From Escherichia coli (GTDB lineage: Bacteria > Pseudomonadota > Gammaproteobacteria > Enterobacterales > Enterobacteriaceae), in assembly GCF_030384885.1 (NCBI RefSeq), contig NZ_CP128613.1: 64,000 nucleotides of DNA; one strand, written 5' to 3'. Positions 47,793 to 50,562 of the stretch are shown piece by piece (position 1 is the stretch's first letter; every line of letters starts with the position of its first letter). Made by a program: the position numbers and the translations under genes. The notes beneath the pieces are model-generated. The model was not told where the DNA came from. It did no database searches and worked only from the letters and a program-made list of their open reading frames with translations.

Positions 47793-48605
47793 ATGGCAAC
47801 AACACAACAATCTGGATTTGCACCTGCTGCATCACCTCTCGCTTCGACCATCGTTCAGACCCCGGATGACGCGATTGTAGCAGGCATCACCTCTATCCCT
47901 TCACAAGGGGATAACATGCCTGCTTACCATGCCAGACCAAAGCAGAGCGATGGCCTACTACCAGTGGTCATTGTAGTGCAGGAAATTTTTGGCGTGCATG
48001 AACATATCCGCGATATTTGTCGCCGTCTGGCGCTGGAGGGGTATCTGGCTATCGCACCTGAACTTTACTTCCGCGAAGGCGATCCGAATGATTTTGCCGA
48101 TATCCCTACGCTGCTTAGCGGTCTGGTAGCAAAAGTGCCTGACTCGCAGGTGCTGGCCGATCTCGATCATGTCGCCAGTTGGGCGTCACGCAACGGCGGC
48201 GATGTTCATCGCTTAATGATCACCGGATTTTGCTGGGGTGGACGTATCACCTGGCTATATGCTGCGCATAACCCGCAACTGAAAGCGGCGGTGGCATGGT
48301 ACGGCAAACTGACAGGCGATAAGTCGCTGAATTCACCGAAACAACCTGTTGATATCGCAACCGATCTTAACGCGCCGGTTCTCGGCTTATATGGTGGTCA
48401 GGATAACAGCATTCCGCAGGAGAGCGTTGAAACCATGCGCCAGGCGCTGCGGGCTGCTAATGCGAAAGCAGAGATTATCGTCTACCCGGATGCCGGGCAT
48501 GCATTCAACGCCGATTATCGCCCGAGCTATCATGCTGAGTCGGCGAAAGATGGCTGGCAGCGTATGCTGGAGTGGTTTAAGCGGTATGGTGGGAAACGGA
48601 ATTAG
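47793..48605 (+). CDS. ysgA: dienelactone hydrolase-family protein YsgA
   Basis: About 270-aa ORF from MATTQQSGF; alpha/beta hydrolase with nucleophile elbow GFCWGG. Confidence 0.9.
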   Translation: MATTQQSGFAPAASPLASTIVQTPDDAIVAGITSIPSQGDNMPAYHARPKQSDGLLPVVIVVQEIFGVHEHIRDICRRLALEGYLAIAPELYFREGDPNDFADIPTLLSGLVAKVPDSQVLADLDHVASWASRNGGDVHRLMITGFCWGGRITWLYAAHNPQLKAAVAWYGKLTGDKSLNSPKQPVDIATDLNAPVLGLYGGQDNSIPQESVETMRQALRAANAKAEIIVYPDAGHAFNADYRPSYHAESAKDGWQRMLEWFKRYGGKRN

Positions 48606-48996
48606 TTTCCTCTTATTCTATATTTGAGATGGTGAGTGAACGAATGCGTTTTGCTGCCATCTCTGTCCCCCAAAAAATAATCAGTATGAATTGATTGGAG
48701 AGCACGACTCCGCTATTTGACCTTAAGAAAGTCGGCAAGTCATAGTCATAAATGAGTCTCTTCACTGGCAGACACCTTAAAGATTTACCATCAACTCCCA
48801 TTCTCAAACAAACATTAATTATTATCAACACATTCACATTAATTATAAATTACCTCAGACCTTCCTGATAAAAAGATATTAAAGTGAAACATTTTGTTTT
48901 TCACATTTTAGTTCATCCCTTTTAGGCGTAAATAAAGGTAAAAAATAACAATACTATTTTTCTTTCACAAAAAAATTAACAAAAGGTTTTTCAAGG

Positions 48997-50145
48997 ATGA
49001 GTGATATTATCTACCTGACCATAACCGGAGAACAACACGGATGTATTTCCTCTCGTTGTGGAACGAGCACATCAATAGGTAATCGCTGGCAGATTGGTCA
49101 TGAAGATGAAATCTTCGCATTCTCGCTCTCTAATAGTATTACGAATACAGGAAAAGGGTCACATTTGCATGGCCTTAGTTTCTGTAAGTTGATTGACAAA
49201 AGCTCCCCGTTACTTATTAACGCTATTAACAATAACGAGCAGTTGTTCATGGAGTTTGACTTCTATCGGATCAATAGATTTGGTCGATGGGAGAAATATT
49301 ACAACATTCAACTCCGCGGCGCGCTCTTATCAGCAATCAATCACCTGTTTACGGAGAACAATCTGGATACAGAAACCATCACTGTCAGTTATGAATATAT
49401 ACTCTCCAGGCATCTGATTGCTAATACTGAATTTAGTTATTTGGCATTTCCCGATAACTACAATCGTCTGTTTATACCACGGCCAAAAACTAAAGATGAT
49501 AATGGCCTCAAAACACTCAATAGTAAAGCTGTTGGCAGACTGCTTGCTGCTGGCGGCATATACAATGGGAATATCGAAGGATTCAGGGAAACAGCAAACA
49601 AGTTGGGGGGAGATGCACCTGCTGGTTACGATCAAGTTATGGATAACAAAGGGTTACTCATCGCTGGTGCTTCAATAGTTGCTGGAGCAGTTCTGGGGAG
49701 AATGAGACTCCCTGATTTGGAATCACTTGAGCATTTCGGAGCCAGAGGAGCAGTATCAGGAAGACCATTTAATCCCGACCTTGCCGGTGGTCCAATAGAA
49801 AATCTGACGACAGATGGCGTAACAATCAACAGGGAAGGTATCGCTATTGTTGAAAAACACATAGCCAGATTTGGTCATGACCCTGTAAATGAAGTGATGA
49901 TCAATAGACTGAAAGACATTGAGAAAGGAAAAATCCCCCCAGAACAAGTAGATCTTAACTTCTATACTCATGAATGTCGGGAATATCAGCGTTACTGTAA
50001 TCTTGGTTGGGAAACAGGACAACCTGATGGTGACGCAGGCTATGCACTCTGGAATCATACGCATACTGCTACTCTAGAAGATTATAAACTTAAGGGAGAA
50101 CTTAATGACTTATACCACCAGGACGCACTTGACTATGATAACTGA
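48997..50145 (+). CDS. Hcp (T6SS tube protein, TssD) fused to a C-terminal extension; candidate evolved-Hcp toxin effector
   Basis: 382-aa ORF. The N-terminal ~160 aa follow the Hcp pattern (ITGEQHG...NRW..GHEDEIFAFS...KLIDKSSPLLINAI...EFDFYRIN) as I recall it; then a Gly-rich linker and a ~130-aa His/Cys-containing C-terminal region. Low GC and AT-rich upstream region. Confidence 0.8.
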   Translation: MSDIIYLTITGEQHGCISSRCGTSTSIGNRWQIGHEDEIFAFSLSNSITNTGKGSHLHGLSFCKLIDKSSPLLINAINNNEQLFMEFDFYRINRFGRWEKYYNIQLRGALLSAINHLFTENNLDTETITVSYEYILSRHLIANTEFSYLAFPDNYNRLFIPRPKTKDDNGLKTLNSKAVGRLLAAGGIYNGNIEGFRETANKLGGDAPAGYDQVMDNKGLLIAGASIVAGAVLGRMRLPDLESLEHFGARGAVSGRPFNPDLAGGPIENLTTDGVTINREGIAIVEKHIARFGHDPVNEVMINRLKDIEKGKIPPEQVDLNFYTHECREYQRYCNLGWETGQPDGDAGYALWNHTHTATLEDYKLKGELNDLYHQDALDYDN

Positions 50146-50380
50146 AACTGAAATTAACATACTGAAAGTTATGGCTGAGAAAGATATAAACTGGAACTGG
50201 ATGAATCTCGATCGCACACTATCTATAAGGCAAATTCCAGGATTCGGTAATGTTGTTAACATTGTTAACAAATTAGCTAACGAGGGTTTGGTTATTATTG
50301 AGGATAGCGGACATAAGTCTATGCCTCACTACCACGTTACTGATAAGGGATACAATCTCGTGAAAAGTGAGAATAAATAA
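50135..50380 (+). CDS. small protein downstream of the Hcp fusion; candidate immunity protein (alternative: small wHTH-like protein)
   Basis: 81-aa ORF (MITETEINILKVMAEKD...), or 91 aa from the upstream ATG at 50105. Its start overlaps the Hcp-fusion stop (ATGATAACTGA), the arrangement seen in toxin/immunity pairs. Confidence 0.5.
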   Translation: MITETEINILKVMAEKDINWNWMNLDRTLSIRQIPGFGNVVNIVNKLANEGLVIIEDSGHKSMPHYHVTDKGYNLVKSENK

Positions 50381-50527
50381 CGTAGCGTTGATTACTGAAC
50401 AAATCGCTCAGGATTATATTTTGCGAAAAAAATGATTCGGTTATTTCTGTGTCTGAACGGCCGCAGATAGCAAAATGGCTTCCGGTGATGGAAGCCATCA
50501 GATTATTGGCAAAGTGCGTGTTGTTCA

Positions 50528-50562
50528 TGCCGGATGCGGCGTGAACGCCTTATCTGGCCAAC
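50528..50562. repeat. REP element
   Basis: GCCGGATGCGGCGTGAACGCCTTATCTGGCC. Confidence 0.5.

Follow-up and report, generated by a model that had tools for sequence, protein, structure and literature searches.

Hcp proteins that carry a C-terminal toxin, the Hcp-ETs, are encoded in Enterobacteriaceae together with small immunity proteins, the ETIs, and more than 350 Hcp-ETs have been listed (Ma et al. 2017, Virulence 8:1189, as relayed in PMC6730261 and PMC6099711). The present analysis concerns a gene pair of this appearance in Escherichia coli, an Hcp-ET gene and a small open reading frame (ORF) that overlaps its 3' end, within a stretch of 64,000 nucleotides of contig NZ_CP128613.1 (assembly GCF_030384885.1) that is referred to below as the window. 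As in the Hcp-ET/ETI pairs covered by those sources, Hcp is joined here to a C-terminal toxin, the gene lies outside the main type VI secretion system (T6SS) cluster, and a small gene, here the candidate immunity gene, follows directly on the 3' side. By Pfam, however, the toxin falls into none of the five Hcp-ET classes that the same sources list, HNH-DNase, DUF2235/Tle1, pyocin S3, colicin DNase as well as papain-like peptidase, and the small protein differs from the partners in those pairs in being a predicted winged helix.

The preliminary description of this locus had proposed either an immunity protein of unusual fold or a small regulator. The gene neighbourhoods and the co-divergence of the two proteins, described below, argue for immunity, but the fold is not unprecedented, since the polymorphic-toxin immunity family Imm-NMB0513/DUF596 is listed with a winged helix-turn-helix (wHTH) with two conserved tryptophans (Zhang et al. 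2012, PMC3482391). The family to which the small ORF belongs shares the winged helix and a pair of conserved tryptophans with DUF596, a resemblance only, as the profiles do not match and the toxins partnered by the two families are of different kinds. A further parallel is offered by the nuclease-immunity pairs of colicins and pyocins, such as colicin E9-Im9, which have likewise co-diverged into specificity types and have orphan immunity genes downstream; moreover, some relatives of the toxin carry a Pyocin_S domain. In contrast to colicin E9-Im9, the candidate immunity protein does not have the four-helix Im structure and the toxin is not an HNH domain. A search of the literature on winged-helix, MarR and HTH immunity proteins and on the ysgA-metE island in which the pair resides found nothing specific to this pair.

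On comparative grounds, the product of the small ORF is most likely a cytoplasmic immunity protein, cognate to the C-terminal toxin domain that the Hcp-ET carries. Four observations led to this reading, 1) the small gene is tightly coupled to the toxin gene, 2) it is linked to the same toxin domain across different carriers, 3) orphan copies occur in immunity gene arrays and 4) the small protein diverges together with the tip of the toxin. It is by genomic features of this sort that an immunity gene is assigned to a polymorphic toxin (Zhang et al. 2012, PMC3482391). The locus is best read as an effector-immunity pair of a known type, in which the toxin is uncharacterised and the fold of the immunity protein is somewhat unusual, and not as a new kind of system.

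The overlapping small gene and its start

The features on which the argument depends at this point are the following.

48997..50145, + strand: Hcp-ET gene (Hcp plus C-terminal toxin), 382 aa, identified with Pfam T6SS_HCP and TIGR03344
50135..50380, + strand: small ORF (81 aa), predicted to encode a cytoplasmic immunity protein of winged-helix fold, from homologues, structure model and dN/dS
50135..50145, + strand: 11-nt overlap ATGATAACTGA, in which the small ORF starts within the final codons of the toxin gene, read from the sequence
50105..50107, + strand: alternative in-frame ATG, not conserved, preceded by the Shine-Dalgarno-like AAGGGAG at 50092-50098, read from the sequence

At positions 50130-50145 the letters are t gac tAT GAT AAC TGA, so that the Hcp fusion ends in D-Y-D-N-stop and the ATG at 50135 lies in the +2 frame relative to the toxin gene. 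The preliminary description had this ATG overlapping the stop codon of the Hcp fusion; an 11-nt overlap of the two genes was read directly from the sequence, and the peptide that it quoted for the small ORF agrees with the translated product. The same 11-nt overlap occurs in the Citrobacter (locus L010) and Mangrovibacter (L007) pairs, while the cognate pairs in L013, L019, L021 and L018 have a 4-nt ATGA overlap or abut directly. When the island was scanned for promoters and terminators, the result did not stand out from background (8 promoter sites found, 5.9 expected), and there was no internal promoter between the toxin gene and the small ORF and no terminator 3' of the small ORF. Toxin gene and small ORF would be co-transcribed and translationally coupled through the overlap, so that every cell making the toxin would also make the antidote.

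Judged by its conservation, the small ORF (50135..50380) is a real gene under purifying selection. Pairwise comparison with cognate and orphan homologues from Citrobacter and Mangrovibacter gave ratios of nonsynonymous to synonymous substitution rates (dN/dS) of 0.10-0.22 at dS >1. The gene was present in 848 of 5,426 complete E. coli genomes, about one in six, including CFT073 (c4753) and PCN033, and homologues were found in Citrobacter, Mangrovibacter, Shigella and metagenomes. The close homologues form 38 clusters, and the family profile had 75 matches, nearly all of them stand-alone proteins of 75-105 aa. The NCBI annotation pipeline, PGAP, calls the identical 246-nt gene in RefSeq genomes.

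The preliminary description gave a product of 81-91 aa, starting at 50135 or 50105. Both ATGs are indeed in frame and a start at 50105 would make the product 91 aa long, but the longer form was dropped and the true start is, on the evidence of the homologues, at 50135 and not at 50105, because the homologues begin with MITETE and the upstream ATG is not conserved. Nearly all homologues have MITETE or MITxxE as their N-terminus, and Mangrovibacter (L007), the second E. coli allele (L013) and the orphan copies either lack an ATG equivalent to 50105 or have it separated by stop codons. The single substitution found in the 10-codon extension was synonymous in the toxin frame and nonsynonymous in the frame of the extension. 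Conservation thus decided against the start at 50105, although the Shine-Dalgarno-like sequence there is the better one, AAGGGAG at a spacing of 6 nt, compared with only AGGA (50120-50123) at 11 nt from 50135. The bases of AAGGGAG double as the toxin codons K-G-E. A minor longer isoform from 50105 is possible in E. coli and Citrobacter.

Linkage to the toxin domain, orphan copies and co-divergence

The linkage, and the co-divergence described after it, involve the following segments of the two genes.

49720..50142, + strand: C-terminal toxin domain, aa 242-382 of the Hcp-ET, all-alpha in an AlphaFold2 (AF2) model
49861..50142, + strand: variable toxin tip, aa 289-382, delimited by the drop in identity between two E. 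coli alleles
50267..50341, + strand: C-terminus of H3, β2, wing and β3 of the small protein (aa 45-69), the allele-specific half, 44% identity between alleles 1 and 2

Where the toxin domain is fused to Hcp, as it is in both E. coli and Citrobacter, a homologue of the small ORF was found directly 3' of it. Toxin domain and homologue also occur together behind a non-Hcp N-terminus, next to traI on a Mangrovibacter contig and next to repA on plasmid pAF18_1. These plasmid toxin proteins are 342-352 aa long (L007 3983-5011; L028 3949-5007), their N-terminal domain of about 140 aa had no Pfam match, and the small-ORF homologue overlaps their 3' end. Other settings were a PAAR-associated array (L017), a locus in which the toxin ORF comes immediately behind an Rhs-type DPxGL tip that is in a different frame, and is followed by the homologue (L018), and a metagenome contig, judged to be actinobacterial, in which toxin and homologue adjoin a WXG100_2 gene (L021/22), with E values of 1e-10 to 4e-3 against a broad family profile. 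On the metagenome contigs L017 (4698-4934) and L018 (3363-3620) the homologue was truncated or left uncalled by gene callers, L018 being a case in which it was not called. Two further relatives of the toxin domain, P0083 and P0084 (L019), carry a Pyocin_S domain. In every setting but the pyocin one, the next ORF was a detectable homologue of the small ORF, with E values from 1e-36 to 4e-3 against the broad family profile; two of these ORFs had no gene call. In one database ORF, P0159, a toxin tip and a small-ORF homologue are joined in one protein.

The linkage was also seen when approached from distant homologues of the small ORF. In L023 the toxin domain was directly upstream, and in L024/25 a remnant of the toxin tip lay beside an insertion sequence (IS) element. 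The plasmid orphan L029 has no toxin nearby, nor do the distant family members L026 and L027, which neither contradicts nor supports the immunity assignment. Near the pair in two unrelated contigs, colicin D-type immunity genes (Colicin_immun, PF09204) were observed, at L007 5320-5619 and L019 472-744; their presence suggests mixed immunity islands.

Orphan copies were found in Citrobacter and in E. coli. The toxin-less homologues in Citrobacter stand right after an Imm35 gene, among other Hcp-ET cassettes. In E. coli, about 118 genomes carry the allele of the window (at least 95% identity) and about 729, for example AR_0006, APEC IMT5155 and CFT073, carry a second allele, in which three genes stand in a row: the Hcp fusion, the 85-aa partner that belongs to it, and an orphan of the window's type. 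This orphan copy (c4753 in CFT073) has a GTG start and 90-95% DNA identity to the window type. Upstream of the start of the orphan small genes, some 25 nt from the 3' end of a toxin gene are retained, a remnant that is best read from the sequence as the scar of cassette displacement. In addition, in several E. coli loci the toxin was broken by IS2, IS3, IS1 or a frameshift and the small gene was intact (L003, L014, L015, L016); the leftover toxin fragments in broken loci are annotated as 'HNH endonuclease' or 'colicin'.

The two E. coli alleles differ in corresponding parts of the two proteins. The toxin is 95-100% identical through aa 288 and 63% identical over aa 289-382, and the small protein is 73-82% identical over aa 1-44 and 33-44% identical over aa 45-81, that is, the end of H3, β2, the wing, β3 and H4. 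Similarly, the window pair is 80% (toxin domain) and 78% (small protein) identical to the Citrobacter pair, and 77% and 59%, respectively, to the other E. coli allele. Among nine pairs the identities of toxin and partner were correlated with a Mantel r of 0.89, a value reached by 2 of 5,000 permutations and inflated by shared phylogeny. In distant pairs the small protein was 20-30% identical and the toxin 44-57%, so the small protein evolves faster.

Fold of the small protein and competing explanations

An AF2 model of the small protein, built with a 14-sequence alignment, had a predicted local distance difference test (pLDDT) score of 90.1 and a predicted template modelling score (pTM) of 0.80. 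The topology was H1(4-15), β1, H2(22-31), H3(40-49), β2(53-56), wing, β3(65-68) and H4(70-80). The small protein is therefore predicted with confidence to be a winged helix with one extra C-terminal helix, a minimal PadR-like arrangement. Its best fold matches in the PDB were RosR, MarR and PadR, with template modelling scores of about 0.8; the winged-helix-like character that had been suspected from the sequence was in this way corroborated. Two tryptophans in a W-x-W motif are conserved in the family, W20 at a frequency of 0.82 and W22 at 0.87. The protein has no signal peptide, transmembrane segment or hydrophobic N-terminus (the maximum 19-residue Kyte-Doolittle value is 1.07), and because it lacks a signal peptide it would act in the cytoplasm.

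Public records label the small gene as a MarR family transcriptional regulator or a hypothetical protein, the former because the fold is one normally used by DNA-binding regulators. The MarR name is unsupported as far as profile comparison goes. Searched alone, the small protein had no significant Pfam or NCBIfam family, the best match being HTH_45 at E 0.05-0.08, and the best NCBIfam match was Lrs14 with 14 bits against a cut-off of 90. No MarR profile matched it, and MarR_2 was matched by one of the 45 family members, at E up to 0.1. Neither the small protein nor any of the 45 members matched a Pfam immunity family or DUF596. MarR regulators are proteins of about 140 aa in which N- and C-terminal helices around the wHTH form the dimer interface; the small protein is far shorter, a bare wHTH with one C-terminal helix. 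The residues with which PadR and MarR regulators contact DNA through H3 and the wing, which are basic or, in PadR, basic or aromatic, are not conserved, K or R reaching a frequency of no more than 0.29 in H3 and 0.16 in the wing, and the median isoelectric point (pI) of the family is 6.55. The context also differs from that of such regulators, being a toxin-immunity cassette and not a regulated operon.

The small protein would neutralise the toxin by direct binding, in which case the former DNA-recognition face, consisting of the end of H3, β2, the wing and β3, may have been re-used as an allele-specific toxin-binding surface. The H3-wing region is the proposed contact face because it is the allele-specific part of the protein and has no conserved basic residues. 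When toxin, linker and small protein were modelled as one fused chain, the pLDDT was 87.5 and the pTM 0.61, with both domains confident, and the last helix of the small protein, which had a pLDDT of about 61 alone, rose above 90 in the fusion model. The backing that this model gives to a contact between toxin and immunity protein is weak.

Several observations weigh against the assignment as an immunity protein. The fold and the remote homology of the small protein are those of DNA-binding regulators: the 45-sequence family profile matches the PadR structure 4ejo with E 1.9e-5, and 5 of the 45 members match Pfam PadR (PF03551) at E up to 1e-3. The small protein itself has no match to PF03551, and these profile matches indicate remote homology, not membership of PadR; the family is apparently a distant branch from PadR-like regulators. 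In some alleles the wing is still basic as in PadR (SRPRYRV in allele 2), and DNA binding by these is possible. The 90-aa neighbour of the pyocin-linked toxin in L019 did not match the family profile, its likeness being by eye only, and no copy of the toxin domain was detected near the distant family members L026 and L027. The pTM of the fusion model is ambiguous as to the interface, and the Mantel correlation is confounded by shared phylogeny. Finally, the charge complementarity usual in nuclease-immunity pairs is absent, because the toxin domain, with a pI of 4.8, is strongly acidic and the small protein, with a pI of 6.3, is close to neutral.

These points bear most directly on the idea that the small protein is a DNA-binding regulator of PadR or MarR type, controlling the Hcp-ET operon or other genes without neutralising a toxin. 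The predicted winged helix, structural matches that are all DNA-binding regulators, the remote PadR homology, the MarR family name given by NCBI to many members, and the extra C-terminal helix, which could serve dimerisation as in small PadR and RosR proteins, would suit such a role. A regulator alone is nevertheless quite improbable, because it would leave the linkage, orphan and co-divergence patterns unexplained. It is not expected to track one toxin domain through Gram-negative and Gram-positive delivery systems, to occur as promoter-less orphans among immunity genes, or to diverge with the last 94 residues of the toxin; furthermore, at 81 aa the protein lacks the MarR dimerisation helices, it has no significant match to MarR or PadR models, the best being the marginal HTH_45 match, and H3 and the wing have no conserved basic residues. 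A combination of functions, in the manner of a type II antitoxin, in which the protein neutralises the toxin and also autoregulates the operon promoter through its winged helix, is unlikely, though less so than regulation alone. All that speaks for neutralisation speaks for this combination as well, and it would in addition account for the kept PadR-like fold and the basic wing (RPRYR) that allele-2-type members retain; the pairs that adjoin RepA (pAF18_1) and TraI (Mangrovibacter contig) genes would fit addiction-module behaviour. On the other hand, no operator-like repeat was found, though no search aimed at one was made, promoter signals in the island were at background level, the protein varies most in H3 and the wing, which are often acidic, and the orphan copies have no toxin promoter to regulate.

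Many T6SS effectors depend on small accessory proteins encoded alongside them, and the tight coupling seen here would fit a partner needed in a 1:1 ratio. It is nonetheless highly improbable that the small protein serves as an adaptor or chaperone, either stabilising the Hcp-ET or loading it into the T6SS, as adaptors track the delivery module and the small gene instead tracks the toxin domain into type VII secretion-type, Rhs-type, pyocin-type and plasmid contexts with unrelated N-terminal domains, and effector-less orphan copies are common. The weak Shine-Dalgarno sequence before 50135 (AGGA at 11 nt) might be taken to mean that the ORF arose by chance in an AT-rich island and is untranslated, an explanation of negligible probability given dN/dS values of 0.1-0.2 at saturating dS across genera, the conserved start and length, the confident AF2 fold and 75 profile matches that are nearly all stand-alone proteins of 75-105 aa.

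The cognate immunity protein thus remains the preferred identity of the small ORF product. A broader proposal, possible but doubtful at present, is that it is the founding member of an unnamed PadR-derived immunity family, in which H3 and the wing are a hypervariable toxin-facing surface, the partner is an all-alpha toxin distributed over T6SS (Hcp, PAAR, Rhs), type VII secretion-type, pyocin-type and plasmid-borne carriers, and an autoregulating addiction module is possible on plasmids. The plasmid pairs near rep and tra genes might be such addiction modules, with the winged helix still autoregulating.

The Hcp-ET, the island and neighbouring features

The Hcp-ET consists of an Hcp domain (aa 1-147), a linker with a hydrophobic stretch and a 141-aa C-terminal domain. 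Pfam T6SS_HCP matched aa 6-135 with E 7e-14 and TIGR03344 matched with 121 bits. The C-terminal extension is about 240 aa long and ends in the domain common to the other toxin architectures. Two further features were delimited in and around this gene.

49504..49704, + strand: pre-toxin linker (aa 170-217, LNSKAVGRLLAAGGIYNGN..GGDAPAGY..DNKGL) and hydrophobic Gly/Ala-rich segment (aa 218-236, LLIAGASIVAGAVLG), defined by comparison
48600..50550, no strand: low-GC island between ysgA (dienelactone hydrolase) and metE, defined by GC content and genome comparison

The linker LNSKAVGRLLAAGGIYNGN...DNKGL precedes three different C-terminal domains in Citrobacter Hcp-ETs, each with a different small gene 3' of it, and therefore has the cassette structure of polymorphic toxins. 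Linker and Gly/Ala-rich stretch are also present in the plasmid proteins that have no Hcp domain (L007, L028). From these comparisons (L004, L007, L010, L011 and L028) the linker region looks like the recombination junction of the cassettes. The Gly/Ala-rich stretch, in which the 19-residue Kyte-Doolittle maximum is 1.62 at aa 220, is possibly a membrane-entry helix.

In the AF2 model the toxin domain had a pLDDT >93 and consisted of six helices after one short N-terminal hairpin without a conserved histidine. The invariant residues, in domain numbering R15, H47, R50, R63, D78, Y82, E85, R87, E88, R91, W111, N112, H115 and E120, cluster on two long helices, with the motifs FYTHExRExxRY and WNxxHTATLED. 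No Pfam, NCBIfam or PDB-sequence match to the domain was found with the single sequence or with a 16-sequence profile, and no PDB fold match outranked the winged-helix matches. On the basis of motifs, Ntox16, Ntox28 and Ntox32 (Zhang et al. 2012) came into consideration for the domain. The names 'HNH endonuclease' and 'colicin' attached to toxin fragments are unsupported, since the domain had no profile match, is all-alpha in the model and has no beta-beta-alpha-metal motif.

The assignment as an effector-immunity pair replaces public names that are unsupported, MarR for the small protein and 'colicin' or 'HNH endonuclease' for pieces of its partner, and adds a second example of the winged-helix fold in immunity. 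It also provides a defined and easily tested pair with which to discover the activity of a widespread, uncharacterised toxin domain, and the two natural alleles together with the orphan immunity copy constitute a ready-made specificity system. The assignment also has a bearing on earlier genetic work. The Hcp-ET gene of the window is 97% identical in DNA sequence to tssD of PCN033, the 1149-bp hcp3 (Peng 2016; L002 1898-3046). In the hcp3 knockout of PCN033 the whole 1149-bp ORF was deleted, and the invasion and colonisation phenotypes were read as those of the Hcp tube protein (PMC4882540). With that deletion the toxin domain is lost, and so are the initial 11 nt of the proposed immunity gene, its start codon among them. 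Consequently, the invasion and colonisation phenotypes of the 'orphan Hcp3' may need to be re-read.

In the window the gene order is udp, ysgA, the Hcp-toxin fusion and the small ORF, with metE and metR on the far side. The GC content is 0.30-0.45 inside the island and 0.52-0.58 in the flanks. Counted as present at a query coverage of at least 80%, the island was found in 822 of the 5,426 complete E. coli genomes, always at the ysgA-metE site. Its sole difference between the window and the RefSeq strain 2013C-4282 is a homopolymer at 49930-49935 in the Hcp-ET gene, which is C6 in the window, leaving the Hcp-ET intact, and C5 in 2013C-4282, where RefSeq flags tssD as frameshifted. Either a sequencing error or slippage that switches the gene on and off might account for the C5/C6 difference. 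Downstream of the small ORF, PCN033 and other genomes have an annotation for a 40-aa 'hypothetical protein', WP_001230617, at about 50422-50544. This reading frame is unlikely to be a gene; it overlaps a sequence that looks like a repetitive extragenic palindromic (REP) element (gccggatgcggcgtgaacgccttatctggcc).

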